From: a virus
Taxonomy: Duplodnaviria; Heunggongvirae; Uroviricota; Caudoviricetes
IMG/VR virus record: IMGVR_UViG_2721755676_000001
DNA length: 64,000 nucleotides
Reading direction: 5' to 3' (one strand)
Positions 1 through 62,333 of this stretch are shown in pieces. The notes under the pieces are model-generated. The model had not been told where the DNA came from. It ran no database searches and saw nothing but the letters and a program-made list of their open reading frames with translations. Each line of letters begins with the position of its first letter. Position 1 is the first letter of the stretch. A program made the translations under genes and the position numbers.

Positions 1-162
1 AAAGTCGGCGGGCGTCTTGTAGCAGTATTGCCGGGCACTGCGCCAATACTGGACTGGATGACGATGGATAATTACGTTTATGCCAGAGGGAAGTCGTTTA
101 CCAACGAGTTTGAAGACACAGGGATCACAGTCAGCGTATACGTTTTCAAACGCGTTAAATGA
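1..162 (+). CDS. hypothetical protein, C-terminal fragment (5' end outside window)
   Basis: Frame 1 is open from window start to TGA at 160-162; no recognisable motif. Confidence 0.25.
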   Translation, partial: KVGGRLVAVLPGTAPILDWMTMDNYVYARGKSFTNEFEDTGITVSVYVFKRVK

Positions 163-182
163 TAGGTAAATGCTTACTTAAT
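160..182 (+). promoter_or_regulatory. class II palindromic promoter-proximal element (TGATAGGTAA...CTTACTTAAT)
   Basis: Shares the 10-mer TGATAGGTAA with copies near 47806 and 57273; lies about 40 nt upstream of the start at 224. Confidence 0.4.
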
Positions 183-223
183 TTATGTAAGAATGTAGTT
201 ACTAAACGATAAGAGAAAAACAC

Positions 224-928
224 ATGAGCAACCTCCAGTTAGAGCATTTTAACGTCACAGGCCATTCCGATTTTCCTTTCAAGTTTACATTGAAAGGTTA
301 TGCAGAGGATGCGGTAGGCCAGATCATTATTGATAAAGGCATCGTTAAGTTTGAGGGGAATTTTGATGAATCCGCGAAAACATTCATAGACTTCGTTGCC
401 AAACGTTGGAGCGAGCAATGGAAAGACCTGGAAAAGCGCGCTAGTGAGTTTGATCGGTTCATGGATGCAATGGATACAGCAAAAGAGGCTCTTGCTGCCG
501 GGACTCCGTTAGATCTGGAGTCACTTTTCAACGGAGAAGTGGCCTCTGCGATGTTCGCCACCATGTTCGCGGGTGAGTTCGTCCGCAGCGGTGCCAAAAA
601 CTACCTTGAGCTGGATTACAACGTCCCTGCAATTGGCGATTTCGTCGTTACCATCCAACGCAAAGAAGGTAAGACGCCAGGTGAACGCGTCGCAGAGCTT
701 GAGGCCGTTGTGGATCAGCGTAACGGAGAGTGTGACCGTTTGATCAACGAGCTTCATGCACTTCGGGAAGAAAGAATATGCGCGGGTAGCAATACACGTA
801 ATGCAGCGGATATCTACTTCCAGTTAGTTGAGGAATGCCAGATTCCACCAGGCGGCTCTCTTGTCGATTACGTCAGACATTTAATGACGGAAGTTAACTC
901 CAGCCATAAAGATGGTGAGGTGCGCTGA
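224..928 (+). CDS. hypothetical protein (234 aa)
   Basis: Long ORF with ATG start preceded by a class II element; the 15-mer GAAAAACACATGAGC at its start recurs at 55195-55209. No recognisable domain. Confidence 0.55.
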   Translation: MSNLQLEHFNVTGHSDFPFKFTLKGYAEDAVGQIIIDKGIVKFEGNFDESAKTFIDFVAKRWSEQWKDLEKRASEFDRFMDAMDTAKEALAAGTPLDLESLFNGEVASAMFATMFAGEFVRSGAKNYLELDYNVPAIGDFVVTIQRKEGKTPGERVAELEAVVDQRNGECDRLINELHALREERICAGSNTRNAADIYFQLVEECQIPPGGSLVDYVRHLMTEVNSSHKDGEVR

Positions 929-1308
929 TGTTTGGCATTGATGCACAGCGTATAGCAGCTTTTGCAAAAAGCCCTCTTGATAATCCCTTGTCTCGTAGTG
1001 AGCAAATGGCGCTGGCAAGGCTTTTTCTTCACATTCAAAAACAGGCAGACATTTTCAATAACATGCCTAATCAACCTATTCTGGATGGTCACATCCAGAT
1101 GGTCATTAACAGTCATGAGAAAGGCTGGGCTGCAATCGTCCCCTGCACAATTACATACAAGTTGGCGAAAGAGGTTCAAGAGTTTCGTAAAGCCAGTGTC
1201 GAATCGGAGTCTACCAAAGCCGCAATAAACACTCTTATTCGCATGGGGTTCACATGGAACGGTGGAGCCTACTGGCAAGCACCTCACCCCATTTTATCCG
1301 GCAATTAG
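928..1308 (+). CDS. hypothetical protein (126 aa)
   Basis: ATGA stop-start overlap with the preceding gene; weak hairpin GGCCA..TGGCC downstream (about 1341-1357). Confidence 0.5.
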   Translation: MFGIDAQRIAAFAKSPLDNPLSRSEQMALARLFLHIQKQADIFNNMPNQPILDGHIQMVINSHEKGWAAIVPCTITYKLAKEVQEFRKASVESESTKAAINTLIRMGFTWNGGAYWQAPHPILSGN

Positions 1309-1363
1309 ACGCTACAAATCCTTCGGCATGAATAAATAAAGGCCATAAGTTGTGGCCTTAAAT

Positions 1364-1416
1364 AAATTGTTTTCTATCTTTTCTTATTTGTGAAAATAAC
1401 CACAACTAGAAAACAA
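1364..1416 (+). promoter_or_regulatory. class I promoter/operator unit
   Basis: TTGTTTTCT half-site, TGtGAAAAT extended -10-like (1389-1397), AGAAAACAA half-site 10 nt downstream; same architecture and near-identical sequence to units at 4982-5046 and 8915-8955. Confidence 0.45.
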
Positions 1417-1427
1417 CGGAGTTAAGA

Positions 1428-1475
1428 ATGTCTAGTATTTCCGAAGCTCATATGTTCGCCGCTGGCGCTCGGTGA
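1428..1475 (+). other. 15-codon micro-ORF (MSSISEAHMFAAGAR) between class I promoter and terminator
   Basis: ATG with GGAG 7 nt upstream; stops after 15 codons; may be a short transcript or remnant of a truncated early gene. Confidence 0.25.
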
Positions 1476-1572
1476 TGCTGCCAACTTACTGATTTAGTGT
1501 ATGATGGTGTTTTTGAGGTGCTCCAGTGGCTTCTGTTTCTATCAGCTGTCCCTCCTGTTCAGCTACTGACGG

Positions 1573-1605
1573 GGTGGTGCGTAACGGCAAAAGCACCACC
1601 TTTTT
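1573..1605 (+). terminator. intrinsic terminator, plus-strand only (GGTGGTGC..GCACCACC + TTTTT)
   Basis: 8-bp GC-rich stem followed by T5; ends 1 nt before the mrp stop codon. Confidence 0.55.
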
Positions 1606-1606
1606 A

Positions 1607-2707: not shown

Positions 2708-2864
2708 CCCGTCTCCTTTATTTTAATTTGCGCAATTGTCGCCTTGTAGTGTACTCCAGCTACGACATTTAATCATTTATGAGAAATGCTGTTATCACAT
2801 GGCAGACATAAGGCCATTTTGTTACTATCAAGCCCCTTTTCACTACAAAGAAGTAATGCCTACT

Positions 2865-4898
2865 ATGACCCAAGTCGCGAAGAAAATTCTGGTGACGTGC
2901 GCGCTGCCGTACGCTAACGGCTCAATCCACCTCGGCCATATGCTGGAGCACATCCAGGCTGATGTCTGGGTTCGTTACCAGCGAATGCGCGGCCACGAGG
3001 TTAATTTCATCTGTGCCGACGATGCCCACGGTACGCCAATCATGCTGAAAGCACAGCAGCTTGGTATCACACCGGAACAGATGATTGGCGAAATGAGTCA
3101 GGAACATCAGACTGATTTCGCAGGCTTTAACATCAGCTATGACAACTATCACTCGACGCACAGCGAAGAGAACCGTCAGTTGTCCGAGCTTATCTATACT
3201 CGCCTGAAAGAGAACGGTTTTATTAAAAACCGCACCATCTCTCAGCTGTACGACCCGGAAAAAGGCATGTTCCTGCCGGACCGTTTTGTAAAAGGCACAT
3301 GCCCGAAATGTAAAGCGCCGGATCAATACGGCGATAACTGTGAAGTCTGCGGCGCGACATACAGCCCGACGGAACTGATCGAGCCGAAATCAGTGGTTTC
3401 TGGCGCTACACCGGTAATGCGTGATTCCGAACACTTCTTCTTTGATCTGCCTTCTTTCAGCGAAATGTTGCAGGCATGGACCCGCAGCGGTGCGTTGCAG
3501 GAGCAGGTGGCAAACAAAATGCAGGAGTGGTTTGAATCTGGCCTGCAACAGTGGGATATCTCCCGTGACGCACCTTACTTCGGTTTTGAAATTCCGAACG
3601 CACCGGGCAAATACTTCTACGTCTGGCTGGACGCGCCGATTGGCTACATGGGTTCCTTCAAGAATCTGTGCGACAAACGCGGCGACACTACCAGCTTCGA
3701 CGAATACTGGAAGAAAGACTCCACCGCCGAGCTGTACCACTTCATCGGCAAAGATATCGTTTACTTCCACAGCCTGTTCTGGCCTGCCATGCTGGAAGGC
3801 AGCAACTTCCGCAAGCCGACCAACCTGTTTGTTCACGGCTATGTGACGGTGAACGGCGCGAAGATGTCCAAGTCTCGCGGCACCTTTATTAAAGCCAGCA
3901 CCTGGCTGAATCATTTTGACGCCGACAGCCTGCGTTACTACTACACTGCGAAACTCTCTTCGCGCATTGATGATATCGATCTCAACCTGGAAGATTTCGT
4001 TCAGCGTGTGAATGCCGATATCGTTAACAAAGTGGTTAACCTGGCCTCCCGTAATGCAGGCTTTATCAACAAGCGTTTTGACGGCGTGCTGGCAAGCGAA
4101 CTGGCTGACCCGCAACTGTACAAAACCTTTACTGATGCCGCTGAAGTGATTGGCGAAGCATGGGAAAGCCGCGAATTTGGCAAAGCTATCCGTGAAATCA
4201 TGGCACTGGCTGACCTGGCTAACCGCTATGTTGATGAACAGGCTCCGTGGGTGGTGGCAAAGCAGGAAGGACGCGATGCCGATCTGCAGGCGATTTGCTC
4301 TATGGGCATTAACCTGTTCCGCGTGCTGATGACGTACCTGAAACCGGTACTGCCGAAACTGACTGAACGTGCAGAAGCATTCCTGAATACAGAACTGACC
4401 TGGGATGGTATCCAGCAACCGCTGCTGGGCCATAAAGTGAATCCGTTCAAGGCACTGTATAACCGCATCGATATGAAGCAGGTTGAAGCACTGGTGGAAG
4501 CATCCAAAGAAGAAGTGAAAGCCACAGCCGCACCGGTAACTGGCCCACTGGCTGACGACCCGATTCAGGAAACTATCACCTTTGACGACTTCGCCAAAGT
4601 TGACCTGCGCGTGGCGCTGATTGAAAACGCAGAGTTTGTAGAAGGTTCTGACAAACTGCTTCGCCTGACGCTGGATCTCGGTGGTGAAAAGCGTAATGTC
4701 TTCTCAGGCATCCGTTCCGCTTATCCAGATCCACAGGCACTGATTGGTCGTCACACCATTATGGTGGCTAACCTGGCACCACGTAAAATGCGCTTCGGTA
4801 TCTCTGAAGGCATGGTGATGGCTGCTGGCCCCGGCGGGAAAGATATCTTCCTGTTAAGCCCGGATGCTGGTGCTAAACCTGGCCACCAGGTTAAGTAA
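2865..4898 (+). CDS. metG: methionyl-tRNA synthetase
   Basis: 677 aa from the ATG at 2865 ([29 protein letters not shown] motif, KMSKS, zinc knuckle CPKC..C..C, C-terminal tRNA-binding domain); divergent from mrp as in E. coli-type chromosomes. Confidence 0.95.
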
Positions 4899-8383: not shown

Positions 8384-8413
8384 AGCCCCGCCATCCTTAC
8401 GGGGCTTTTTTTG
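8384..8413 (+). terminator. intrinsic terminator
   Basis: AGCCCCG..CGGGGCT followed by T7. Confidence 0.7.
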
Positions 8414-8476
8414 TATTGTAAGTACATACTTACGATCATAGAATAGAAAAATAACCAATACACTACGGAGAGTGAA

Positions 8477-12254: not shown

Positions 12255-12773
12255 TTAAAACGGAAGGATTCGTTCAACCCAATCGAAGAAAATAAGTATT
12301 TTTCTACCGTCTTCCAACTTAAGTGTGACTAGACAGGCGTCAACGCCATCTGACGTTCCCTCAATTTCGCGACCGTCTGCCATGTAGACCCTTATAGATT
12401 TGCCGTTTTGGTAAGCCTGACGACATATCTTAAAAAAGTCACGACGTGATGGCTGATTAACCATCTGTTCATTGTTTAGCGTTAGTCGACCTGTGAATGA
12501 AGTGTCAACCTCTTCTATGCCCGACTCAATTGTGCTAATGCGCTCAAGAGGGAGCCTTATACGATTTGTGTTGCTAAGCGGATCTGGTGTGAGGTTCAGC
12601 TTATTTCTTGCGCTCAATAGCCCGTAGACATACATGCAAAATACTTGGCCGTCTTCGAGAGTGACTCTTACAGGAAATTTTGCACTCCGCCAGAAGAGCA
12701 AGGTGCGCTCAGCATGTTCGTAGTCTCGCGGCCAGACTTCAGCCGGTATGCCGTAGGTGATGTCTTTAACCAT
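12255..12773 (-). CDS. hypothetical protein (172 aa), AT-rich
   Basis: Isolated minus-strand ORF with downstream hairpin AACCGG..CCGGTT. Confidence 0.5.
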   Translation of the reverse strand: MVKDITYGIPAEVWPRDYEHAERTLLFWRSAKFPVRVTLEDGQVFCMYVYGLLSARNKLNLTPDPLSNTNRIRLPLERISTIESGIEEVDTSFTGRLTLNNEQMVNQPSRRDFFKICRQAYQNGKSIRVYMADGREIEGTSDGVDACLVTLKLEDGRKILIFFDWVERILPF

Positions 12774-14061: not shown

Positions 14062-14628
14062 TTAATCATTCAATAATCTATATTTTCTTTTGATTAAATC
14101 TTCACCTTTTTTGGTGAACACAAAACCAAATTGCGATTTTTTGTTCAGCCTAAGGACTCTGTTATCCAACGCATCGGTTGATGGAATCAATGTTTGATCA
14201 TCTATCCAATTAAGTAGCGTAAGAAAGTTCAGCAGCCTCAACGTTGTTGTGCGAAGCTCTTTCGATATATTTTCAATGCTGGCAATTCGTCTTTCTTTTT
14301 TCTCAGGTGGTACAGATAATTGTTCTTGAGGTTTCGTGGGTAGATAATCAATTTCGTTTGCTGAATCGAATGATATGTGTGGCGTAATTTTGCTAAAAAA
14401 GCCTTTCGCTGACTCACTTGATAATAAACCAGACCTATTCATATCGTTTGTTATTCTGTACAGGAGTGGACTGTGTTTCATTTCAGGATAACGTTGATAA
14501 AAGTTAAGCAATTCAAAAGCAGCATTAGCACCAACAAGAAAATCAGAAGGATCGCTGACTTTCCAGAAAGAATGATTTTTCTTAGCGCCAGTGGTGTCAA
14601 CAAATGATAATTCTTTTAACCAACTCAT
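14062..14628 (-). CDS. hypothetical protein (188 aa from ATG with SD), AT-rich
   Basis: ATG at 14628 preceded by AAGGAG; last gene of the helicase operon. Confidence 0.45.
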   Translation of the reverse strand: MSWLKELSFVDTTGAKKNHSFWKVSDPSDFLVGANAAFELLNFYQRYPEMKHSPLLYRITNDMNRSGLLSSESAKGFFSKITPHISFDSANEIDYLPTKPQEQLSVPPEKKERRIASIENISKELRTTTLRLLNFLTLLNWIDDQTLIPSTDALDNRVLRLNKKSQFGFVFTKKGEDLIKRKYRLLND

Positions 14629-14693
14629 GATGTGCTCCTTTCTAACAAGTGAGCACATCATAGAATTAGTAGATAGGGGGTAAATATGAAATG

Positions 14694-14974: not shown

Positions 14975-16534
14975 CTAATCTCGTTTCAGAACTCCAAAAT
15001 CGAATGCGCCATCAACAGGCAATACACCTTCTGCAAAGCCAGGTGTGGTGTCGATGATGTGTTTTCGCTCATAAGAGTGAGACAACAGGTATTTGTTGCT
15101 AATGTCAATGAAATCAGTGATAAAACACACGTTTGCCTGATTCTTCTTGGCTCGTAACCCACGACCGACACGTTGTCTCATTTCAACTTCTGCTTTCCCA
15201 CCACCAGCAAGAATGACCGCACCAACGCTTGGCACATCAACACCGACATCCAGAATAGTCGAGCCTATTAAAACATCTATGTCGCCAGACGCTAAACTGT
15301 TCAGCTTTGCTTGCCTTGTCGACTGGTTCGATTCCCCATAAATGAAGTCAACTCTAAGGCCGGACTCTTTCATCATTTCCATCAGGATTTGCCCGTGGCG
15401 TTTAAGACGAACCAGAGTCATACAATTGAGAGAATGTTGCTTATAGAGCAATGCTTCGCGAACAATGGCCTCATTACGTCCCAAATTATACACGATCCCC
15501 AACTGATAAGCCTTTTGGTAGGCAGTGCTCATACCTACTCTAAAATTGAGGTGTTTGTTGGCAAGTTCTGCCTTGATTCTGGCCTCGTCCGGCTTGTAGG
15601 CAACTTTATGATAAAGGAAGTATGGCTTTGCCAGAATGCCTCTATCAATCAGGTACTTTTCCGTGACTTTTATTTCAATTCGCCCGGCCACTGCCATCAG
15701 ACGCATGTTGGCTTCCGTAGAATCCTTCATGAACGGCGTTGCCGTAAGCGCCAGGCGATAGTCTGCGTTCGCACATAATCTGGCAATGTCATAGAAATTA
15801 GAGCCTGAAGACTCATGCGCCTCTTCCAGAATAAGAAGAGAGACACTTGAAAGGAAGCGTTTCACCAAGTCCCGACGTTTGAGGTGGTAGCTCTTCTTAT
15901 CTGGAGTTGCATCGCGTGGTGGTTCTTCAAGGAAACTTGCCAGAGTTTGAACTGTAGCGACGTTGATATGTCGTGATACCTGGAACTCACCCGAGCCAAT
16001 GACTCCAACCTTTTGGTCTTTTAACCACGGTTCGCCATTTTCAGCGCGGTAGTCGATGGATCTCTGGAAGTTTTCGGCCATCTGAAACATCAGAACAGAG
16101 CGGGTTGTTAAAAATAATGTCATTCGACCGATACGTGCAGCTGCTTTGCAGGCAACATTAGATTTCCCGCCACCAGTAGCGATCTGCGCAATCATCATTC
16201 CCTCTCGAACCAGTGTTTCCACAGTCTGATCCTGATATGCATAATCAGGATTGTATGGGAATGGGTTGACCGCCGGATTTGGCTTTCCAAGCGCCGGAGC
16301 TTTGTCTTTGCGGATATGAACACATTTGATGCCCGTCTTGTTCAAGTTCGCCGCTACAGGCTTGGCAAAGCCAGCAGGGAACGAGTTTTTACTCCAGTTG
16401 AACATCGTGCTTGTGCCCTTCCAGTCGCCAGTCTCGACTTCGTAGCTCAACATCTGTTGCACCAGTTGCTTTACCTTGTCATCTGCGCCAGAAATAAGTG
16501 CATTTACTGCGTTAGATACAATCCGAACAGTCAT
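14975..16534 (-). CDS. superfamily 2 DEAD/DEAH-box helicase (ResIII-like)
   Basis: Motif I ATGGGKS, motif II LILEEAHE, motif III TATP, motif VI QRVGRGLR. Confidence 0.8.
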   Translation of the reverse strand: MTVRIVSNAVNALISGADDKVKQLVQQMLSYEVETGDWKGTSTMFNWSKNSFPAGFAKPVAANLNKTGIKCVHIRKDKAPALGKPNPAVNPFPYNPDYAYQDQTVETLVREGMMIAQIATGGGKSNVACKAAARIGRMTLFLTTRSVLMFQMAENFQRSIDYRAENGEPWLKDQKVGVIGSGEFQVSRHINVATVQTLASFLEEPPRDATPDKKSYHLKRRDLVKRFLSSVSLLILEEAHESSGSNFYDIARLCANADYRLALTATPFMKDSTEANMRLMAVAGRIEIKVTEKYLIDRGILAKPYFLYHKVAYKPDEARIKAELANKHLNFRVGMSTAYQKAYQLGIVYNLGRNEAIVREALLYKQHSLNCMTLVRLKRHGQILMEMMKESGLRVDFIYGESNQSTRQAKLNSLASGDIDVLIGSTILDVGVDVPSVGAVILAGGGKAEVEMRQRVGRGLRAKKNQANVCFITDFIDISNKYLLSHSYERKHIIDTTPGFAEGVLPVDGAFDFGVLKRD

Positions 16535-16616
16535 AAACCTCTTTCCTTAGTGCCTTTTGTATGTTATTTGGCTATTATAATAAGTAAGTGATTACTTAAT
16601 GGATTGTAGCAATAAA

Positions 16617-17297
16617 ATGGATGTAAAAATCACGATTTTGCAGGTTGATGTTGCCAACCTTCGCCCGAATACCTGGAACACCAATTCGGTTGGTGCGCAG
16701 AATTTCGAAAAACTGAAAGGTTCTATCGAAAAATTGGGCTTTTTTAAGCCAATTTTGGCTCGTGAACTTGAAGATGGATTTTTTGAAATCCTCGGCGGCG
16801 AACATCGCTGGCGTGCTGCTATTGAGCAAGGGATTTCAACGGTTCCGGTGCTTTCTGTGGGCAAAATTAGCGATGTCGTAGCTAAACAGATGTCACTGGT
16901 GGACAACGAGCGATACGGTGAAGACGACCAAATCGCATTGCAACGCTTCATTGAAGAAATTCAGTCAGAACTTGACTATCAACTGTCTGAAATCGCTCCG
17001 TATGACGACGAAATCTCGATGGTTTTAGCAAAAGAGGCGGCAATCGACCTTGAAGCACTGGAGGCGTTGTCTCGTGGTAGTGATGAGCCTGTCGATACCG
17101 ACAAACGAGAGAAAACCGAACGTGTGGGTGCGGAACATCAGACCATGCGCTTCAAAGTAACTTTCGATGCGTCAGATCGTGTTGCAGAAACCATAAAAAA
17201 CATCATCAAAGAGCAGGCTATTAACACCGGTAATGAAATGGAGAACGCTGGTGAGGCTCTGGTGTGGCTGGTCGACTACTACAAGGAGCGTATGTAA
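16617..17297 (+). CDS. ParB/Srx-fold (ParB-like nuclease domain) protein 1
   Basis: GGEHRWRAA matches the ParB box II GERRxRAA pattern; class II palindrome TAAGTAAGTGATTACTTA overlaps the alternative 16599 start. Confidence 0.65.
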   Translation: MDVKITILQVDVANLRPNTWNTNSVGAQNFEKLKGSIEKLGFFKPILARELEDGFFEILGGEHRWRAAIEQGISTVPVLSVGKISDVVAKQMSLVDNERYGEDDQIALQRFIEEIQSELDYQLSEIAPYDDEISMVLAKEAAIDLEALEALSRGSDEPVDTDKREKTERVGAEHQTMRFKVTFDASDRVAETIKNIIKEQAINTGNEMENAGEALVWLVDYYKERM

Positions 17298-17965
17298 TGA
17301 CCAAAAAGTTTGAAATCGTATATCGCGACCCGGCAGATCTTATTCCCTATGAGATGAATGCCAAAAAGCATGATGAACAGCAGATCCGAGATCTAGCTGC
17401 AGCCATTAAAAAGCGCGGATTTGACCAGCCAATTACGGTCGATAAGAACGACGTAATTATTACTGGCCACGGCCGCCGTGAGGCTGCAATTTTTGCTGGA
17501 CTTGAGCGCGTACCGGTTATTGTTCGCGATGATCTCAGTGATGACGAGGTTCGTGCGAAGCGCCTTGAAGATAACCGACTTGCCAGCATTGATTACGATG
17601 CAATTAAGCTACAGAAAGAGCTTGAGTCGCTTGTTCTGGACGATATCGAGGTTTTCGGCTTTGAAGAGCGTGAGTTGAATGTTCTCGTTGGCAGTATGAC
17701 AGAAGAAATGGACACCGACTCGCTAGTTATCGATCTTGGCGAAGAAACTAAACGACAGAAGGATGAACACACCGAGATCAGTCGTGAAGTTGCAGCGGAA
17801 GAAGTACGTGTTGTCGACGTATTGGGCTTTAAAACGCTCCCTGCTGGCTCTGCCATTGTTGTTGGTGATTTGCTTGCCCACATGGAAGAAATGACGGGAG
17901 AAAGCGGGGTAGACGCATTTGTGGCATATGCGGAGAAGATCTCTTCCGGGGAGATGGCTGCATGA
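17297..17965 (+). CDS. ParB/Srx-fold (ParB-like nuclease domain) protein 2
   Basis: GHGRREAA motif in the N-terminal domain; TAATG stop-start overlap with the preceding gene. Confidence 0.65.
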   Translation: MTKKFEIVYRDPADLIPYEMNAKKHDEQQIRDLAAAIKKRGFDQPITVDKNDVIITGHGRREAAIFAGLERVPVIVRDDLSDDEVRAKRLEDNRLASIDYDAIKLQKELESLVLDDIEVFGFEERELNVLVGSMTEEMDTDSLVIDLGEETKRQKDEHTEISREVAAEEVRVVDVLGFKTLPAGSAIVVGDLLAHMEEMTGESGVDAFVAYAEKISSGEMAA

Positions 17966-18627
17966 GCAAATACATCATCAAAGTATCGTTTCAGACACGC
18001 GTAAATAAAACCACTCGCACGTTGGAAATCGCTGAGTCGTTCGGGCTTGGCCTGGACGAAAAAGAGTGGACGCTTTACGACAATCTGGAGCTGGAAGTGA
18101 AGCAGGGCGATGTGGTGTACATCACCGGCCAATCCGGTTCCGGCAAATCCGTTGTGCTGCGCGAGTTGCAACGACAGATGAAGGATGAAGGGCTGTCTGT
18201 AGCCTCCATCGATGATTTTACCTTCGATAATGAGGTTAACGTCATCGATCAGTTGGGCAAAACGACCAGTGATGCGCTTGGGTTGTTATCTATGGCTGGT
18301 CTGAACGATGCATATCTGTTTGTTCGCAAGCCTTCTGAAATGTCAGACGGCCAGAAATATCGTCTCAAGATTGCCAAACTGATTGAGTCAGGCGCTAAAG
18401 TATGGGCTGCTGACGAGTTCGGCGCTGTTCTCGACCGTGTAACCGCTCAGGTTGTGGCGTCTAACCTCCAGCGTGCCGCTCGAAAGGTTGGTGCGACGGT
18501 AATGGTGGCGACGACTCACGAAGACCTGAAGAACGCGCTGCGCCCGGATATGCAGATCACCAAGCACTACAAAGAACGCGTGAAGGTGGAATATCACAAT
18601 GGTAGTCATGATGAGGTCCATTCATGA
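17962..18627 (+). CDS. minimal ABC-type ATPase (221 aa, no transporter partner)
   Basis: Walker A GQSGSGKS, signature SDGQ, Walker B VWAADE, H-loop TTHE; ATGA overlap with the preceding gene. Confidence 0.7.
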   Translation: MSKYIIKVSFQTRVNKTTRTLEIAESFGLGLDEKEWTLYDNLELEVKQGDVVYITGQSGSGKSVVLRELQRQMKDEGLSVASIDDFTFDNEVNVIDQLGKTTSDALGLLSMAGLNDAYLFVRKPSEMSDGQKYRLKIAKLIESGAKVWAADEFGAVLDRVTAQVVASNLQRAARKVGATVMVATTHEDLKNALRPDMQITKHYKERVKVEYHNGSHDEVHS

Positions 18628-19514
18628 CGGACATCATCATTAAACGCTACCGCCCTGAAGAGTTCCCGCGTCATCTGGACTTTCTGGAGCGAATGACTGT
18701 TACAAAGGGAACTGTAGAGGACTGGCACGCTCTTAAGTCGCTTCACTACAAAACAGACGGCAAACCTTTCGCGCCAACTTACTATCGCTGCGAACTTGAT
18801 GACCGTCTGGTGGGCGTCGTGGTTATGGCTTACCCGAAACTACTGCTGGCACCTCGCCACCGCATGTTTCCTAAGTTGAAACCAACCACTAATACCACCG
18901 TGGCTAACCAGTACTGGGGTCGGTACGTGAATAACAACTTTGCGGTGATCAGTCGCTCAGTTGTGGATACTCAGTATCGTGGCGTAGGCGTCTCTTATCG
19001 AATGATTAACCTGGTTAGCAGGATGCATGACCGGCCAATCATTGAGATCCAGTCCTCGATGAGCAAATACAATCCCTTCGCCATGAAAGCAGGGTTTAAG
19101 TTCATCCGCCCTGAGCGACCGAAGAGCTATGAAAGTGCACTGCGTGTATTCCAGCGCCATTTCCGTTCCGACCCGGGTGATAACGAGGCGATCGTCAAAG
19201 AGTTGTTCGCAATGAGCGAGTCTCGTCGTCGCCGTGCACTGCGTGATCTGGTGGCGGACTACCACAAGAACAGTTCCCTGGCAAAAGCTGGGCGGAATCG
19301 TGGCACGACGATTCAGGACATTGCCGACAGTCTGGTGGACGAGGCCAGCATTGTGAAGCTGCTCAAGGACATTCACAATCTGAGCTTTACGTCTCCGTTG
19401 TATGGTGTGTATCGAAACCCTGACTTTGGTCGTCGACTGCCTGACACGCTGCCACTGCTGGCATTCGACAAACAACCTTTGGATAAACCGTTAGAAATTG
19501 CTTTGCCGGCATAA
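18624..19514 (+). CDS. GNAT-like acetyltransferase-fold protein (296 aa)
   Basis: QYRGVG fits GNAT motif A (Q/R-x-x-G-x-G/A); start overlaps the upstream stop. Domain call is inference. Confidence 0.45.
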   Translation: MTDIIIKRYRPEEFPRHLDFLERMTVTKGTVEDWHALKSLHYKTDGKPFAPTYYRCELDDRLVGVVVMAYPKLLLAPRHRMFPKLKPTTNTTVANQYWGRYVNNNFAVISRSVVDTQYRGVGVSYRMINLVSRMHDRPIIEIQSSMSKYNPFAMKAGFKFIRPERPKSYESALRVFQRHFRSDPGDNEAIVKELFAMSESRRRRALRDLVADYHKNSSLAKAGRNRGTTIQDIADSLVDEASIVKLLKDIHNLSFTSPLYGVYRNPDFGRRLPDTLPLLAFDKQPLDKPLEIALPA

Positions 19515-19523
19515 GGATTTGCC

Positions 19524-19790
19524 ATGACGTTAACCGATAAACAAAAGGACATCATCAAAACGCTCAATCTCGGTTATGAGCGAGGTCATCTACTTGACCT
19601 GGACGAATTGCTTGAAGTTTTGCCGTACAAGACAACCAAGCAAAGTATCCAGTTCTCAATTCGCGCTCTGATAAAAAAGGGGCTGGTGGAGAAAGGGCAT
19701 ACGCGCCAACGCAGTGACAATCGCTATCACCGCCGAACTCTTGGGTTAACCACTTTAGGTCGAGCCAAAGCGAAGTTACTGGTGATGTAA
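19524..19790 (+). CDS. small winged-helix DNA-binding protein (88 aa)
   Basis: Helix-turn-wing pattern (IRALIKKGLVEK), basic C-terminus. Confidence 0.4.
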   Translation: MTLTDKQKDIIKTLNLGYERGHLLDLDELLEVLPYKTTKQSIQFSIRALIKKGLVEKGHTRQRSDNRYHRRTLGLTTLGRAKAKLLVM

Positions 19791-19814
19791 TCGGTCTGGG
19801 AGCTTATTTAAAGA

Positions 19815-19869
19815 CCTGCTTCTGTATATATAAATAATAAGTAACTTATTAAATATATACGGAAGCAGG
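19815..19869. repeat. 55-bp near-perfect palindrome (copy A)
   Basis: CCTGCTTCTGTATATATAAATAATAAGT|AACTTATTAAATATATACGGAAGCAGG; second copy at 52829-52881; outer inverted repeat GGTCTGG/CCAGACC. Confidence 0.7.
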
Positions 19870-19905
19870 CTTCGTAAGACATGCCAGACCTAATTAAACA
19901 CCCCA

Positions 19906-19947
19906 GAAAACAAGTTGGTTAGCAGATGCAGTAAACAAGTTGTTTTA
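19906..19947 (+). promoter_or_regulatory. two class I operator palindromes upstream of terS
   Basis: AGAAAACAAGTTGGTT and TAAACAAGTTGTTTTA, followed by hairpin AGAGCGC..GCGCTCT and SD. Confidence 0.45.
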
Positions 19948-19985
19948 GAGCGCATGGACGCGCTCTGTGTGTTTTAGAGGGATCT

Positions 19986-20618
19986 ATGACGGTCGAAAAA
20001 GACGAGGTAAAAACTCGCCTGACACCAGCGGAGTGGGCCGAAGCTGAAGCCAAATGGACGTCAGGCGAATATACACTCTCAAAGCTGGAGGAAGAGTACG
20101 GCATTCGTCGTGAAACACTCTCCAGACATTTCAAAAAGCGAGGATTAGAGAAAGGCGCGGACTCTGTTGGGAAGATGGTTCGTGAGTCTCTTAAATCTGA
20201 CGCAGAGCTTCGCGCTAAAGCCCGTGCGGAAAAGATAGAAGAACGTCGTACACGTTATGACGGCTGGGCGTATGCGTTGGGGCAGATGGTGATGGTCGAA
20301 GTCACTACGGCCAAACGTGAGGGTAAGCCTTTAGGGGCGATTGAGGATTCTCTCAAGAGCTTACAGAGAGCCAGTAATACCCTTGCAAAATGCTTTGAAG
20401 TTTCGTCCAAAGCATTGGGCATGGATCATGCGGAAAATGACGAGGAAGAAATTCCGAACCTGGTATTTGGTGAGCTTACGCCTTCCCAGGTGGCGAAATT
20501 ACGTCAGGAAGACGACGAGCCTGAAATCATCGATGACGAATTGCTTGAGACGTTGGAAGAAGAAGCTCTAAGCGAATTTGATGCGACAGATGATGGAAGT
20601 GAAGGGGAGGACGAATAA
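19986..20618 (+). CDS. terminase small subunit (putative)
   Basis: 210 aa, helical N-terminus, very acidic C-terminus, directly upstream of and overlapping the large-subunit gene. Confidence 0.6.
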   Translation: MTVEKDEVKTRLTPAEWAEAEAKWTSGEYTLSKLEEEYGIRRETLSRHFKKRGLEKGADSVGKMVRESLKSDAELRAKARAEKIEERRTRYDGWAYALGQMVMVEVTTAKREGKPLGAIEDSLKSLQRASNTLAKCFEVSSKALGMDHAENDEEEIPNLVFGELTPSQVAKLRQEDDEPEIIDDELLETLEEEALSEFDATDDGSEGEDE

Positions 20619-21874: not shown

Positions 21875-21900
21875 GTAAGTAATTATCTAAGGTTATTCAA

Positions 21901-23475: not shown

Positions 23476-23496
23476 TAAGTAACAAAAGGAATTTTT

Positions 23497-24384
23497 ATGA
23501 ATCTGTGGCAAATGCTTTTGGCCCGTCGTGGTCTGATGGATGTCGCTGAAGCGCATGAGCGTGGAGGCGCTGGCGGTGTAGCTGCTGATAATGAGCAGAG
23601 CACACAAGATCCTGACAAACAGGGTGAACAAAAAGAGCAGCCGAAGGGCGATGACGAATACGCTGGGATGACTCAGGAAGAGTTACTGGCCGAACTTCGT
23701 AAAACCAAGAAAGCTGGTGCTGAACTGCTGAAGGAGAACATGAAGCGCAAAGAGAAAGAGCGCACATTGGCCGATCAGCTTGCTCAGTACGGTGATATCG
23801 ACCCGGCGCGTGCTCGCCAGCTTTTAGAAGCTGAACAGGCCGCAGAAAATGCACGTCGTGAGGCGGAGCAAGCTGAACTGGAGCGTCGTGGTGAGTTCGA
23901 TGCTGTTAAAAAACAGATGATCGAAGCACACCAGGCAGAGCTGGCACAGCGTGACGAACGTTATACAGCACTGGAAAGTGAAAACGCATCACTGAAATCT
24001 CAATTAGTCGAGATGACCGTGGGCGCTTCCTTCAGTAACTCTCTCTTCCTACGTGACAAAGTTCTGATGACCCCGGCAAAAGCCCGCGTGATCTACGGTT
24101 CTCATTTTGAAGTGGGTGAAGACGGTAGCGTAGTGGGTTATGACAAACCGGCAGGTCATAAAGAACGAGCTGTTCTGGTTGACGGTGAAGGTAAGCCGTT
24201 GCCGTTTGAATCCGCGATTGAACGCATTGTGCGGGCAGATCCGGAAGCTGACGCATTGATGCGTAGCGAAGCCAAGCAGGGTGTAGGCTCACATTCCAAA
24301 TCGACCTACACAATATCCCAACCGAAGAACAAGTCGACTATGGATAAGTTGGCCTCCGGTCTGGGGAAAATTGGACTTAAGTAA
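23497..24384 (+). CDS. head scaffolding protein (putative)
   Basis: Glu/Ala/Arg-rich coiled-coil protein between portal and capsid genes. Confidence 0.5.
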   Translation: MNLWQMLLARRGLMDVAEAHERGGAGGVAADNEQSTQDPDKQGEQKEQPKGDDEYAGMTQEELLAELRKTKKAGAELLKENMKRKEKERTLADQLAQYGDIDPARARQLLEAEQAAENARREAEQAELERRGEFDAVKKQMIEAHQAELAQRDERYTALESENASLKSQLVEMTVGASFSNSLFLRDKVLMTPAKARVIYGSHFEVGEDGSVVGYDKPAGHKERAVLVDGEGKPLPFESAIERIVRADPEADALMRSEAKQGVGSHSKSTYTISQPKNKSTMDKLASGLGKIGLK

Positions 24385-42250: not shown

Positions 42251-42343
42251 TGGTGGAAAAAAAATTTTATATCGGTAAAAATAGGTAAGTATCTACTTAA
42301 TAGCGGGCAAGGATAGCCCGCCAAATCAAGGAGCATATTCAAC

Positions 42344-47806: not shown

Positions 47807-47875
47807 TAGGTAAGTACACACCTACAACAAAAGGGTGAAATGTGATATAAATCCGCCATCCCGATTTGACTTTTC

Positions 47876-52828: not shown

Positions 52829-52881
52829 CCTGCTTCTGTATATAAATAATAAGTAACTTATTAAATATATACGGAAGCAGG
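52829..52881. repeat. 53-bp near-perfect palindrome (copy B)
   Basis: Same sequence as 19815-19869 minus 2 bp; lies in the divergent region before the replication module. Confidence 0.7.
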
Positions 52882-52988
52882 TCTTTTAAAAGACACCACC
52901 AGAACAACTCCCTTCCGTTTCCACTTCCAAAAACTGCCACCAGTCGCTATCATCCGCTCATTGTGATAAGTAAGTAACTACCAACTAG

Positions 52989-56385: not shown

Positions 56386-56460
56386 CAATCACCTTTAAAA
56401 TAAGTAGATGATTACTTATCTTTCTGTGAGAATACTTTCATCTGTTAGCTAGGAGTTGGT

Positions 56461-57243
56461 ATGAAAGACGAAATTCAGAAATTAGCCTGCGACATCATTG
56501 ATAAAACTGGTTTAGAAATCAGCGAGAGCAATCGGCTAGACATCATTGAAAAAGCCGTAAAAACAGCAATGGATCATATCGCCACTCGTTTGGTCGAGAT
56601 CCCGCTACCGGGGCTACCTTATCTGAAGGTTAAGTTACACGTATGGGGTGAACCTTCTTGTGCACGGCGTTCTGCATTAGTTGTTTTTATTAGCAAAGAA
56701 AACCCGATCAGTCTTAAAGTGCAGGTTGGGGCATGGATGGATGGCAAAGTGATCTACACAAATACCGTTTTTTGTGCGTCAAATGACAGTATTATTGAAG
56801 AGGCTATTCAAGAATCACTTCTAACTATGCATAGCTTATTTTTGCTGGAAGACAAGCAAAACTACGAAGAGTACTTGCGGTCGATAAAAGGTGAGAGAAC
56901 ATTGTCACTTAAAGCCGATTTCGTTACCCCGACAAACCTGTTGGAAGTCTTGCTTAATAAAGGGGCTAATGATGCCGTAAATGTAATCAGAGAGAGTGAG
57001 TATGCGTCTCTTTGCGACATGTGCAAAAGCCAGTTGGATCTGGTGCATATCGTTATTGATGCTGGGAAGGCATGTGATGGCGTAATGGCGGAGTTTGCTG
57101 GGAAGATGGTCAGGATTGCTAACGAATTACCGATGATAGAGCAAGAGGCTAAATCATACGCCACCAATCATGTCACAGAGCTTCTTGTCCCCTATCGCTT
57201 AGAAAGCGATCAGCGCAAGATGATTAGCTGGGGAAGTTGGTAA
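56461..57243 (+). CDS. hypothetical protein (260 aa)
   Basis: Class II palindrome ATAAGTAgatgatTACTTAT upstream. Confidence 0.45.
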   Translation: MKDEIQKLACDIIDKTGLEISESNRLDIIEKAVKTAMDHIATRLVEIPLPGLPYLKVKLHVWGEPSCARRSALVVFISKENPISLKVQVGAWMDGKVIYTNTVFCASNDSIIEEAIQESLLTMHSLFLLEDKQNYEEYLRSIKGERTLSLKADFVTPTNLLEVLLNKGANDAVNVIRESEYASLCDMCKSQLDLVHIVIDAGKACDGVMAEFAGKMVRIANELPMIEQEAKSYATNHVTELLVPYRLESDQRKMISWGSW

Positions 57244-57298
57244 GCTCTCAGTGTGTCGTTTTTTACGCAAATAATGATAGGTAAGCACAAGATTATTT

Positions 57299-57781
57299 TT
57301 GGCGGTAATTGTGAAAGCTGATTTGTCAAAAATCCCCTCTATTTCAGGAAATAATGGTTATTCACTTCGTTGTGAGGAAGTAAAGATAAACGGTGAGTCG
57401 GCATATTGCAGCTACTCCGTTTGCCAGCACACCATTCTTGCCTTCAAAGAAAACCGTCTTCCTCGAACTTCATTCCAGTCGTGCGCAACCGCTATCAAAG
57501 CAGGCAAATGCAAGGCGTTAAAAATGATGGTTGAAGAGATTCGTAAAGGAGAATCTCTGTATTTCGAAGATATGACCGCGCTCATTAAGGAGGTTGAAGA
57601 ACGGAATAAACAAGCCAGAACTTTAAAACGAAAACGTGACAGTGTAACGATTAATAGCATGGTTAAGAAGAGCACCACATCACAAACAGCGATCACTGAC
57701 GTGTATGCGGCGTTGCTTGAAGAAACAACAAAAGAAACACATGAGCAAATCGATCAACATATGGAGGTAAAACAACAATGA
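57299..57781 (+). CDS. hypothetical Cys-rich protein (160 aa; start uncertain, TTG 57299 or GTG 57311)
   Basis: ORF with class II element upstream; overlaps the ligase start. Confidence 0.4.
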   Translation: MAVIVKADLSKIPSISGNNGYSLRCEEVKINGESAYCSYSVCQHTILAFKENRLPRTSFQSCATAIKAGKCKALKMMVEEIRKGESLYFEDMTALIKEVEERNKQARTLKRKRDSVTINSMVKKSTTSQTAITDVYAALLEETTKETHEQIDQHMEVKQQ

Positions 57782-59312: not shown

Positions 59313-59461
59313 TTCCATACATCTCATTAGCTTTTATGGGTGGCTTCCTTATCGGCTTCGGCATCTGTCGTGATTTAATTAAGCAGGAACTTAAAACCAA
59401 AACACTGTGCATCGGAAAGCGTGTGTATCGGGTAGTTCATGAAACAAAGGTTAGAAAATGA
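59309..59461 (+). CDS. small membrane peptide (50 aa)
   Basis: ATGA-coupled ORF with one hydrophobic helix; below the ORF-track cut-off. Confidence 0.3.
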   Translation: MIPYISLAFMGGFLIGFGICRDLIKQELKTKTLCIGKRVYRVVHETKVRK

Positions 59462-59748
59462 GCAATTTAACTTCTTGGGACTGGTGGTTGGCCACCTATT
59501 TCTTAGCGGCCGGAGTCGCATTCGCCTTTTACGTAGGTCAGTTAGTCGTAAAACTGCTGCTGATTAAATTTGCCAGTCATAAACGTATCGATGATGGTCT
59601 GTGGCGTCTTGGCACCCTGGTGGAAACTCGCTACGGGCAACTTAAGGAGAACGAAACCATTACTATCCAAGCGAAACGGTTCACTGCCACCATCACAAGA
59701 ACACCTAGTCGTAGAGTGGCATTGATCAAAAAAGTCACAACCGAATAA
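59458..59748 (+). CDS. small membrane protein (96 aa)
   Basis: ATGA-coupled; N-terminal TM helix; terminator-like palindrome GATAAGTA..TACTTATC + TTTT downstream. Confidence 0.4.
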   Translation: MSNLTSWDWWLATYFLAAGVAFAFYVGQLVVKLLLIKFASHKRIDDGLWRLGTLVETRYGQLKENETITIQAKRFTATITRTPSRRVALIKKVTTE

Positions 59749-60138
59749 AAACATATTGATAAGTATTTACTTACTTATCTTTTATGTATAAGATGACTTT
59801 GTTTTCGTTGAGACGCGACTGTTTGAACTTAAATACAAGTGCAAACGAAGAAGTCTATCTGGCAGTAGCCTAATAAGCCAAACACCAGCGAGGTCAGTTT
59901 CCAGCCTCGTTACCGAAATGGGACACACTGAGCGAGTGTGATTGCAGAACGCAGGAGGGAACATGAATGTTCCCTCCGATGAAGTAACAGAATGGGCGGT
60001 TGGTATATTTTCAACTCCATATGACTCCCGGATTCTTAGCCACTGACCGCCCATCCTGTTACGTCATTTTGTTCAATTATGTCGTTTATACTGGGTTAAA
60101 AAGCGGCGACGTAGCCCGGCTGGTATGGTTAGCCAGCA

Positions 60139-60526: not shown

Positions 60527-60601
60527 GATGGTGTAGCTCAGCGGTAGAGCAGTTGGCTGTTAACCAACTGGTCGGTGGTTCGAATCCACCCACCATCGCC
60601 A
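60527..60601 (+). tRNA. tRNA-Asn (anticodon GTT)
   Basis: Canonical cloverleaf with T-loop TTCGAAT and 3' CCA; sequence differs from chromosomal E. coli tRNA-Asn as recalled. Confidence 0.9.
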
Positions 60602-60606
60602 ATTTA

Positions 60607-60693
60607 GGGGAGTTAGTCCGTAGGGGCAGCGGAGTAGACTGTAAATCTACTGTCATGGCGACTCGGGTGGTTCGACTCCATCACTCCCCACCA
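60607..60693 (+). tRNA. tRNA-Tyr (anticodon GTA)
   Basis: Class II tRNA with long variable arm, anticodon loop CTGTAAA, 3' CCA. Confidence 0.85.
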
Positions 60694-60697
60694 AATT

Positions 60698-60773
60698 GCC
60701 GGTTTAGCTCAGTTGGTAGAGCGCCTGCCTTGTAAGCAGGATGTCAGCGGTTCGAGTCCGCTAACCGGCACCA
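60698..60773 (+). tRNA. tRNA-Thr (anticodon TGT)
   Basis: Perfect cloverleaf with anticodon loop CTTGTAA, T-loop TTCGAGT, 3' CCA. Confidence 0.9.
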
Positions 60774-60845
60774 ATACAACGATAAGATCATTACGGTTAA
60801 TCGTCGTTCATGTGCACAATGACTGGTCGAAAGGTAGTGATCTTA

Positions 60846-60995
60846 CCGTTGTGGTGGATTCGCAGACTGATGCGATAGCTTTCTTGGATGTTAGGGAAAT
60901 GCGGCCGCAAATCTTCCCTTTCGCGAGCGGTGATCGTCCGTAGTCCTAATTGGCTGCACCGTATGCCGGAGATTCAGTACCGGCCACCACAACGG
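60846..60995 (+). ncRNA. structured RNA-like element between tRNA-Thr and tRNA-Ser (function unknown)
   Basis: 12-bp closing stem CCGTTGTGGTGG/CCACCACAACGG around internal hairpins; ends 2 nt before tRNA-Ser; no canonical tRNA fold. Confidence 0.3.
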
Positions 60996-60997
60996 CC

Positions 60998-61084
60998 GGA
61001 GAGTAGGGAGCATGGTGCTCAAGCGGTCTTGAAAACCGTCCCATTGCGCAAGCGATGATGGTTCGATTCCATTACTCTCCGCCA
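60998..61084 (+). tRNA. tRNA-Ser (anticodon TGA)
   Basis: Class II tRNA with 3-bp D stem, long variable arm, anticodon loop CTTGAAA, 3' CCA. Confidence 0.85.
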
Positions 61085-61086
61085 GA

Positions 61087-61164
61087 CACAGCGTTGAGCG
61101 GTTTGGCCTTTTAATCACCCAGATTAAGACTCCGCTAACATAAACCAGACCGCTCAACGCTGTG
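61087..61164. repeat. long inverted repeat: 16-bp perfect arms CACAGCGTTGAGCGGT / ACCGCTCAACGCTGTG around 46 nt
   Basis: Starts 2 nt after tRNA-Ser; arms resemble those at 60139-60260. Confidence 0.5.
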
Positions 61165-61241
61165 ATAGACAATTACGGCAGACGTTCTTAACCATAGCTT
61201 GCTAACATCCTAGCAACACTTTTTTCAGCGCAAAATTCAAA

Positions 61242-61260
61242 GGGGCTTCGGCCCCTTTTT
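61242..61260. terminator. bidirectional intrinsic terminator
   Basis: GGGGC ttcg GCCCC with A-run upstream and T5 downstream; abuts the stop of the minus-strand gene at 61262. Confidence 0.65.
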
Positions 61261-61261
61261 G

Positions 61262-62158
61262 TTAATGATTATCTAGGTATGCTATTAACTCATTTTTAAT
61301 GATAAGTGAATATTCTAAAATCTCACCTAGTAAATATTCTGCTTTTTTAAAATGCCAACCCATATAGCCTAATTTTTCTGAAGGTCCTTCTAACAACATT
61401 ATAATATCGCTGTCTTTCTCTTTGGCAATGTATTGTCTTATTTCTATCTCAAAATTATTTCTTGTCTTCCCACTTATTGATGATTCATCCAAAACTTTAG
61501 TTATAAACTTTTCCGTGTCGATGAACTTTCCTGCATTATGCACAATTGTATGTCTTAGCAGCTCAATTAAAGTGATCTCGAAACGATAGTTTTTACCTAT
61601 CTTGTTATTTATTTCTACGTCTCTAAAATTGGGTAACTTTCTTCTAAATACTTTCAGGATTTTTTTTGGTGCTTTATTATTTCTTTTTATCGCATTGTAG
61701 TAGGTTTCCATGTCTCCATTTTGTTCGATCTGAACATTTTTAAATTCACTAGGTTGCCAAAAATGGTCATGAATACTCACTGTATGGGCATATATTTTCT
61801 TAATATAGTCTTCAAACAATTCATATGCTTCGGTTATAACCCATTGATACTGTTTATTTTTTAACACTTCACATAACTTTATCTTCTCTGAAAGATCTGT
61901 TCTAGTATGCCCAATTCCAAATGTTGAACCTGTATATGGATTTGAGCATGTATGGTTTGCTAACGTTGTCCCGCATGTTAATGGGAAAGTATTATTAGCA
62001 TCTAGATTTTGTACGTTTTCAAGTGTATGCTTAAATCGCTTTATGTTGTCTTTCGTTGTAACATTTATATGACCTAACAAGTCACAACGTAAAATTATTT
62101 CATTTCTTAAATCAGTGAATATTTTTTCGACAAAAGAACCTGATGGGTTTTCAATCAT
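61262..62158 (-). CDS. AT-rich hypothetical protein with HEPN-like Rx4H motif (possible abortive-infection-type protein)
   Basis: 298 aa, about 30% GC versus about 50% for flanks; RHTIVH fits R-x4-6-H; stand-alone gene between terminators. Confidence 0.55.
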   Translation of the reverse strand: MIENPSGSFVEKIFTDLRNEIILRCDLLGHINVTTKDNIKRFKHTLENVQNLDANNTFPLTCGTTLANHTCSNPYTGSTFGIGHTRTDLSEKIKLCEVLKNKQYQWVITEAYELFEDYIKKIYAHTVSIHDHFWQPSEFKNVQIEQNGDMETYYNAIKRNNKAPKKILKVFRRKLPNFRDVEINNKIGKNYRFEITLIELLRHTIVHNAGKFIDTEKFITKVLDESSISGKTRNNFEIEIRQYIAKEKDSDIIMLLEGPSEKLGYMGWHFKKAEYLLGEILEYSLIIKNELIAYLDNH

Positions 62159-62333
62159 CTAAACCTCTACGAAAATCTTACCTATAAGACAGTCCTTAAT
62201 GTAATCTGTTTTCTCCACTACTTCAAATTACCTCACAATCTATTGATAGGTGACTACCTACTTACATACAAAGTTGATTTATAGTATAGTCCCTCTGTTG
62301 CGTATTAGTATTTTAAAAGGCATCTGTTAAGTT

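Follow-up and report, generated by a model that had tools for sequence, protein, structure and literature searches.

The concept of a dispersed repressor network is not new, being already known from phages P1 and L5. The L5 repressor gp71 has about 24 intergenic stoperators, and D29, a lytic derivative without the repressor, keeps them (PMC5712189). Here we analyze a palindromic sequence that recurs 5' of the operons of an SSU5-like phage-plasmid, as identified by sequence comparison with its relatives. The DNA is a 64,000-nt stretch from the IMG/VR virus record IMGVR_UViG_2721755676_000001 (hereafter the window), and the sequence is referred to as the class II element, the name it received in an initial annotation that was made from the letters alone. 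The window contains 15 class II sites, while about one is expected by chance. Very probably, the element is bound as DNA by a dimeric regulator and is linked to lytic promoters. We further estimate a probability of roughly one half that the sites are operators of an XRE-type immunity repressor, located in or between the lytic transcription units.

The organization resembles that of L5 (Cluster A) in having about 24-30 sites genome-wide, mostly in short intergenic gaps and at both early and late operons (PMC5712189, PMC9283540), with one site at the switch promoter and with the sites retained in a repressor-deleted lytic derivative (D29 there, SSU5 here). The L5 sites, however, are 13 bp long, asymmetric, bound by a monomer and oriented with transcription, while the class II element is an 18-bp palindrome, implying a dimer. 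Many class II sites are embedded in sigma70-type promoters and are not pure roadblocks, their orientation being given only by the flanking -35, and the host, the phage family and the repressor family all differ. The C1 system of P1 is likewise found in an enterobacterial plasmid prophage, with repressor operators that are scattered over many operons and overlap sigma70 promoters (P1 annotation). In P1, however, the operators are asymmetric and 17 bp long and the late genes are under Lpa, whereas the sites described here are palindromic and include the late genes. The c1 gene (852 nt) encodes 283 amino acids (aa), compared to 128 aa for the XRE-type candidate. The class II system thus belongs to neither the P1 C1 nor the L5 family, because of its palindromic site and different protein type.

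A 12-kb stretch of the window is 97.3% identical to Escherichia phage CMS-2020a and 96.6% to phage Cyrano (the pLF82 phage-plasmid), with about 81% identity to Salmonella phage SSU5 and Klebsiella phage-plasmids. The window was compared with the full genomes of Cyrano, SSU5 and pJN2-26. Nearly all genes of the window are located on the + strand. They comprise early genes without an assigned function, a ParB-like operon, a complete morphogenesis and lysis region, ParA, a replication operon and a tRNA cluster. The SSU5-like portal gene was found in about 960 plasmid records (959). In the searchable literature, queried both with the letters of the motif and for regulation in SSU5, we found no account of this motif or of regulation in SSU5-like phage-plasmids.

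The sequence TGATAGGTAAGTA, allowing up to two mismatches, has 13 matches in the window against 0.77 expected, a number reached in none of 100 shuffles. The arrangement TAAGTA-N0-10-TACTTA occurs five times (0.02 expected), and TARRTA-N6-TAYYTA has seven exact matches against 0, or 20 against 1.0 when up to one mismatch is allowed. Among hexamers, TAAGTA shows the strongest intergenic enrichment: 21 of its 26 copies lie in the approximately 15% of the window that is non-coding, and all 14 window copies of TAAGTAA are non-coding. A position weight matrix derived from a 13-mer was discarded since it drifted owing to the 4-nt periodicity, and a degenerate 18-mer, TARRTAAGTACTTAYYTA, was used instead. 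With up to four mismatches, it gives 25 window matches at 19 loci (1.8 in shuffles), and 33, 31 and 30 loci in Cyrano, SSU5 and pJN2-26, respectively (shuffles about 2). An exact-motif scan of IMG/VR returned multi-site loci that are all SSU5-like, the remaining matches being single ones, by chance or in coding sequence.

All 14 positions listed in the initial annotation carry the motif, and the non-random placement upstream of operons that it had proposed was borne out. Every site is intergenic save one copy in the portal gene, and most begin within about 30 nt after the upstream stop codon and about 5-100 nt 5' of the next start codon. The relatives have about 30 class II sites per genome of about 105 kb, at orthologous intergenic positions. 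The earlier list lacked the copy in the portal gene (23379-23396), which is conserved. For the listed copy at 57275 only the left half is canonical; the right half reads ACAAGATTA instead, a deviation that is kept in the relatives.

In alignments of orthologous intergenic regions from four genomes, the element is held in place while the flanking non-coding bases diverge. The alignments converge on a perfect palindrome of 18-20 bp, (A)TAGGTAAGT/ACTTACCTA(T), where the slash marks the dyad center and which is realized perfectly at some pJN2-26 and SSU5 loci. The element is thus a fixed 18-bp palindrome, TARGTAAGT/ACTTAYCTA, made of the 4-nt repeats (TARG)n/(CYTA)n. Because one fixed palindrome is built of such repeats, the half-site spacing is quantized: the TARRTA...TAYYTA spacings in the four genomes are -2, 2, 6 and 10, with two Cyrano pairs (5 and 9) as the exceptions. 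The freely variable spacer of 0-8 nt reported in the initial annotation is therefore an artefact of register, and its argument against a fixed-geometry operator is reversed, as the data favor such an operator. In relatives with a portal identity of 69-72%, the outer TARGTA-N6-TACYTA is kept and the inner 6 bp are altered (e.g., TAGGTATTTAAATACCTA), which suggests the outer half-sites as the recognition core.

The sites are associated with promoters in an oriented manner. Across the three full genomes, 27 of 71 class II sites overlap a sigma70-like -35/-10 pair directed toward the downstream gene, compared to five on the mirrored strand and about 1.4 expected (the chance of a pair at a site being about 0.02), an enrichment of about 19-fold. 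For the window the corresponding numbers are five of 15 sites, none mirrored and about 0.4 expected. A sigma70 scan of window positions 16001-36000 showed that such matches are depleted there (10 vs 21.6 +/- 4.6 in shuffles), and that the few left are concentrated at class II sites, on which three of the eight + strand matches fall. The palindrome most often occupies the 17-bp spacer. It may also be placed on the -10 (28872) or the -35 (62247), 5' of an extended -10 (163, 56401), after the predicted start (52967) or at a ribosome-binding site without room for a promoter (21872). Such variation in where the palindrome falls on the core promoter is characteristic of operators rather than activator sites. 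The initial annotation had suggested that the motif may mark middle or late promoters. The link to promoters stands, given the oriented pairs, but a specificity for middle or late genes does not, since the element also precedes replication, nucleotide-metabolism, recombination, structural and lysis genes. The copies in the window are as follows.

163-180: class II site TAGGTAAATGCTTACTTA, 5' of the open reading frame (ORF) 224-928, with an extended -10-like sequence TGTAAGAAT at 186-194; both are kept in SSU5 and pJN2-26.
8415-8433: class II site with the palindrome GTAAGTACATACTTAC at 8418-8433, inside a promoter TTGTAA (8416-8421), 17 bp, TAGAAT (8439-8444), whose -35 and -10 hold their position in SSU5 (TAATAT) and pJN2-26 (TAGTAT) while adjacent bases vary; a terminator hairpin (stem within 8386-8404, then a T run) lies just 5' of the site.
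16581-16598: class II site TAAGTAAGTGATTACTTA in the 64-nt divergent gap that separates the UvsW-like helicase operon on the - strand from the ParB-like operon on the + strand, with the palindromic ATTATAAT flanking it and TATAAT on the + strand at 16576-16581.
21872-21889: class II site TAGGTAAGTAATTATCTA between the stop codon of the terminase large subunit and the portal ribosome-binding site, a roadblock-type position, as a promoter plus leader cannot fit.
23372-23400 (+ strand): element with the intragenic class II site TAAGTCAGTACTTACTTA (23379-23396), which fills the 17-bp spacer between TTGAAA (23372-23377) and TATGAT (23395-23400).
25295-25312: class II site TAGATAAGTAATTATCTA, 3' of the major capsid gene and followed by a terminator-like hairpin (stem 25320-25336, T run to about 25345).
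28872-28889: class II site GGTAGGTATATACTTACT, 5' of the major tail gene, overlapped by TTGAAT (28856-28861), 18 bp, TATACT (28880-28885).
35362-35390 (+ strand): element with the class II site TAAGTAAGTACTAATTTA (35366-35383) within TGGATA (35362-35367), 17 bp, TATCAT (35385-35390), 5' of tail gene L and followed by a covarying hairpin (35394-35416).
42282-42299: class II site TAGGTAAGTATCTACTTA, 5' of the side tail fiber gene, with a GC hairpin next at 42303-42322.
47807-47824: class II site TAGGTAAGTACACACCTA, 5' of the holin gene, with a conserved TGATATAAA about 20 nt downstream (within 47840-47852).
52967-52984: class II site TAAGTAAGTAACTACCAA, adjoining the ribosome-binding site of the replication operon, 14 nt 3' of a conserved TTCCAA (52925-52930), 17 bp, TATCAT (52948-52953), i.e., the position of an operator downstream of the start.
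56401-56418: class II site TAAGTAGATGATTACTTA, 5' of ORF 56461-57243, with an extended -10-like sequence TGTGAGAAT at 56425-56433.
57278-57295: half-site copy TAGGTAAGCACAAGATTA, 5' of ORF 57299-57781, with a canonical left arm and a conserved deviation in the right arm.
59756-59781: class II site TTGATAAGTATTTACTTACTTATCTT, 3' of ORF 59458-59748, with TAAGAT at 59789-59794.
62247-62264: class II site TAGGTGACTACCTACTTA, 5' of the glutaredoxin gene, overlapped by CTTACA, 18 bp, TATAGT (62285-62290).

The intragenic site in the portal gene is located about 100 nt 5' of the scaffold gene, and its TTGAAA-17-TATGAT is the best sigma70-like match (10/12) in the 16-36 kb region. It is kept in the relatives with 69-72% portal identity, where it matches each genome's own flavor of the motif despite amino-acid changes.

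The likeliest binder of the element would be the XRE-type immunity repressor homologous to CYRAN_45, a protein of 128 aa whose gene adjoins the integrase in Cyrano. A CYRAN_45-type repressor was found in 864 plasmids, compared to 959 for the portal, with nearly equal per-genus counts in enterobacteria, and the XRE-type repressor is core to the SSU5-like family. In Cyrano, pJN2-26 and pHCM2, the intergenic region between the repressor and the cro-like gene has a single conserved block, and this is a class II variant, TGGTAAGTGCTTACYGATATTACA. The sigma70 scan of pJN2-26 gives a TTTACA-16-TAATAT promoter for the repressor gene, adjoining this variant. Lineages with the recognition helix NANN(L/I)SLIKSG retain TARGTA-type sites; a third enterobacterial lineage has TARGTA-type sites, tandem TTACTTAC repeats at the repressor gene and the helix NANNISLIKSG. 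The Acinetobacter lineage (A. baumannii plasmid NZ_CP035046) has a diverged helix, RPNVLSMIKSG, together with another dispersed palindrome, (TC)AGTCAGTACTGACT(GA), present in 11 copies in 33.7 kb. These copies likewise lie within TTGAAA-18-TATACT-type promoters and 5' of the XRE repressor gene.

SSU5 is without the glutaredoxin/integrase/XRE-repressor module of about 5 kb (position about 42.6 kb in SSU5) that nearly every related plasmid carries. An Enterobacter ludwigii plasmid with the module matches the SSU5 flank at 99.3% identity, and colinearity across the junction in SSU5 was seen in none of 822 plasmids; SSU5 thus appears to be a recent virulent derivative with a deleted repressor. For this reason, the lack of the repressor in SSU5 was dropped as a ground to exclude the repressor as binder.

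Which protein binds the sites and in which direction it regulates are inferred here. A dimeric helix-turn-helix regulator would bind the 18-bp palindrome, with TARGTA-N6-TACYTA as the essential half-sites, and the predicted target of the CYRAN_45-type repressor is TAGGTAAGTACTTACCTA. In the plasmid-prophage state, the repressor would sit on about 30 sites, occluding RNA polymerase at the promoter-embedded sites and presumably acting as a roadblock at the intercistronic sites that have no room for a promoter. DNA damage would inactivate the repressor, upon which the host RNA polymerase would fire the whole set.

Per-gene expression of Cyrano was taken from the RNA sequencing data of strain LF82 (supplementary table of PMC9928086), a dataset that is only suggestive. 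In the lysogen, most Cyrano genes that follow a class II site do not rise above background. Genes behind promoters with a 10/12 match are quiet too, with CYRAN_56 at the detection floor and CYRAN_4/5 at background. At 6 h in macrophages, CYRAN_60 (+3.65 log2), CYRAN_56 (+3.6) and CYRAN_12 (+2.5) are among the largest step-ups between adjacent genes, and all three are located just after class II sites.

Several points weigh against the assignment to the XRE-type repressor. Its gene is located outside the window, just past the right end. The link to the repressor is correlative, as any co-inherited regulator would co-vary alike. A recognizable -35/-10 pair is present at only about 38% of the sites, and a -10-like hexamer (TATCAT-type, at least 4 bits) starting at motif position 17 is found at 31% of the sites vs 30% on the mirrored side, so that this edge hexamer is symmetric and in part simply continues the palindrome. 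When all adjacent gene pairs are considered, no difference in expression step is seen between class II sites and other gapped intergenic regions (Mann-Whitney p = 0.08-0.86). Lysogen expression is seen for CYRAN_34 (ortholog of ORF 56461-57243; moderate) and for the UvsW operon (CYRAN_118/117) though the palindrome overlaps their core promoters, which under repression would need weaker operators plus strong -10 elements. In addition, the late genes of well-studied phages are stated to be positively controlled without exception (PMC10695390), and repressor gating of late structural genes without a positive late regulator would be unusual. The strongest form of the proposal is that a single XRE-type repressor directly gates the entire lytic program, down to the late structural and lysis genes, via about 30 palindromic operators in host-type promoter spacers, without a late activator or antiterminator. 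We regard this form as improbable.

The sites could instead be middle or late promoters of the P1 Lpa type, at which a dimeric phage activator bound to the palindrome near -20 recruits the host RNA polymerase to a weak -10 (TAnnnT). The P1 late promoters, 11 in number (PMC10695390), have a -22 box, AAGTnACTT, and the arrangement AAGT(G/T)ACTT + 4 nt + TAnnnT in the annotated P1 record resembles the AAGT/ACTT + 3 nt + TAnnnT of class II, with similar distances between dyad center and hexamer (7.5 vs 9 bp). As in P1, there are many copies per genome 5' of morphogenetic operons, and the late region is divided into units by the sites. The two cleanest TATCAT sites (Cyrano 57447 and 59400) coincide with the strongest 6 h step-ups in macrophages, and two site-bearing operons with a good -10 are expressed in the lysogen, as expected for unoccupied sites. 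However, AAGT/ACTT is here without the central base and lies within a larger 18-bp palindrome in the close relatives, the core is lost in distant relatives, and the TAnnnT-type hexamer is as common on the mirrored side. Many sites have a good -35 at 17 bp, and with the spacer taken up by the palindrome there is no space for an activator. The position of the site relative to the -10 varies, and early-type genes are also preceded by sites. No Lpa homolog was found either. The PF25716 homologs found are all in P1-like elements, a search with the Lpa hidden Markov model in the six-frame ORFs of the window, Cyrano, SSU5 and pJN2-26 gave nothing at E < 0.1, and a structure search (AlphaFold2 model of Lpa, Foldseek vs BFVD) gave only generic winged-helix matches. 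The resemblance to the Lpa promoters is probably coincidental, and an activator of this type seems unlikely. Still less likely is that the sites are parS/OB-like loading sites for the ParB-family protein encoded at 16599-17297, a CTP-dependent clamp that would silence or activate nearby promoters like KorB, VirB or BisD. This protein matches Spo0J/ParB/Noc over the N-terminal and helix-turn-helix regions (E = 2.6e-9), a palindrome of 16-18 bp is of a suitable size, a class II site lies directly 5' of the ParB-like operon, and global regulation by ParB-like clamps has precedents (PMC11790492, PMC10770331, PMC12409273). The OB sites of KorB in RK2 are similarly short palindromes at a dozen or more plasmid promoter regions, including that of the regulator's own operon, and KorB is also a ParB-family helix-turn-helix protein. 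Unlike in that system, the ParB-like genes (CYRAN_119-122) show lysogen expression at or close to the detection floor and can therefore hardly encode a lysogenic silencer, and the sites lie within core promoters, not at varying distances from them. A ParB-type site does not have to be embedded in a promoter spacer, and in three lineages it is the promoter of the repressor gene that the family-specific palindrome follows.

The initial annotation had taken the palindrome for an RNA or DNA hairpin that may mark processing sites. RNA hairpins 5' of ribosome-binding sites might indeed serve as processing sites, stabilizers, weak terminators or targets of an RNA-binding regulator (FljA-like). Many copies can be folded into stems of 5-9 bp, some copies in the window have GNRA loops (GTGA at 16581, GTAA at 21872 and 25295) plus G.U pairs, and the ortholog series at 25295 goes from G-C over G.U to A-U. 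Several copies adjoin a ribosome-binding site (21872, 52967 and the dam site), a few are located just 5' of terminators, and a FljA-family protein is encoded at 12255-12773. Against this, covariation between the arms is absent. Fisher tests over Cyrano, SSU5 and pJN2-26 gave an odds ratio of 1.06 and p = 1.0 for positions 3/16 (table 14/16/14/17) and p = 0.33 for positions 4/15. Position 3 (R) and its partner (Y) form 38 Watson-Crick, 18 G.U and 18 A.C combinations among 84 sites, A.C thus being as frequent as G.U. The sequences of both arms are conserved while the center, the would-be loop, is variable. The portal-upstream site keeps A.C mismatches in several genomes, copies such as 52967 and 57278 are unable to fold, and an Rfam scan of the window gave no family at class II sites. 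Since the two arms vary independently, an RNA hairpin is unsupported and can be considered weakly refuted already; of all the readings, we hold it to be the most improbable. The absence of covariation fits two independently read half-sites, and the overall signature appears to be that of a dimeric DNA-binding protein rather than of a selected RNA stem.

The window also contains a set of GC-rich hairpins directly 3' of several late-operon class II sites (28890-28907, 35394-35416 and 42303-42322). Their sequence differs between genomes with retention of the pairing (GCGCA/TGCGT, GCACC/GGTGC, GTGTC/GACAC) and, unlike the class II palindrome, they look like genuine RNA structures. The FljA-family protein (12255-12773, - strand) is full-length (‘repressor of phase-1 flagellin’, PF03614, E = 1e-68), is conserved in SSU5 and pJN2-26 and shows moderate expression in the Cyrano lysogen; it is possibly a host-directed moron or a phage regulator. 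The ParB-like operon (16599-19790) encodes two proteins with a ParB-N domain, two ATPases and an 88-aa protein, and is located just 5' of the small terminase subunit. Small conserved proteins (88, 119, 160 and 126 aa, among others) received no DNA-binding assignment in comparisons with Pfam, PHROG and PDB sequences. As a candidate for Lpa, ORF 14062-14661 was rejected: its tblastn match is weak (E = 0.16) and the ORF is conserved in neither SSU5 nor pJN2-26.

A second motif consists of an extended -10 (TGnGATAAT) and, about 10 nt further on and directly 5' of the ribosome-binding site, the palindrome GAAAACAAnTTGTTT. It occurs in the window at 1409, 5032, 7528, 8012, 9680, 19906, 50820 and 53748, sometimes with an extra copy, ACAATTTGTTTTC, near the -35 (partner copies at 1368, 4991 and 8926). 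This motif probably corresponds to the class I element of the initial annotation and seems to form a promoter/operator class of its own, serving early genes, ParA, the helicase and the small terminase subunit. A further palindrome of about 50 nt, CCTGCTTCTGTATATA...TAAGTAACTTA...TATATACGGAAGCAGG, is present in at least three copies per genome (window 19815-19868 and 52829-52880; Cyrano 78100). The linear GenBank records of Cyrano and SSU5 start and finish in the middle of its first copy, 5' of the small terminase subunit, and this position of the record ends at its center hints at a role in packaging, replication or termination. The window further encodes three tRNA genes (60527-60770), which are the sole Rfam matches in the window, and a 720-aa ORF (2736-4898) whose Cyrano ortholog is annotated as methionyl-tRNA synthetase; together they represent translation-related cargo on the phage-plasmid. 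The gene at 62764-63318 (- strand) encodes a homolog of CYRAN_43 (184 aa, phrog_28788), by far the top-expressed Cyrano gene in the lysogen at about 720 times the background.

SSU5-like phage-plasmids are common in Klebsiella, E. coli, Enterobacter, Salmonella Typhi (pHCM2) and Yersinia pestis (pMT1-type). For these elements, the 18-bp operator plus the candidate repressor would provide a testable map of the lysis-lysogeny regulon, and the model would explain the origin of the lytic isolate SSU5 by deletion of the repressor module. The sites may offer handles for inducing or curing these plasmids, as well as a compact design for a repressible promoter with the operator in its spacer. If the whole lytic program were indeed gated directly by the one repressor, it would form an exception to the positive control of late genes, and operator and promoter spacer would co-evolve as one unit across about 1,000 clinically common plasmids, pHCM2 and pMT1 included.

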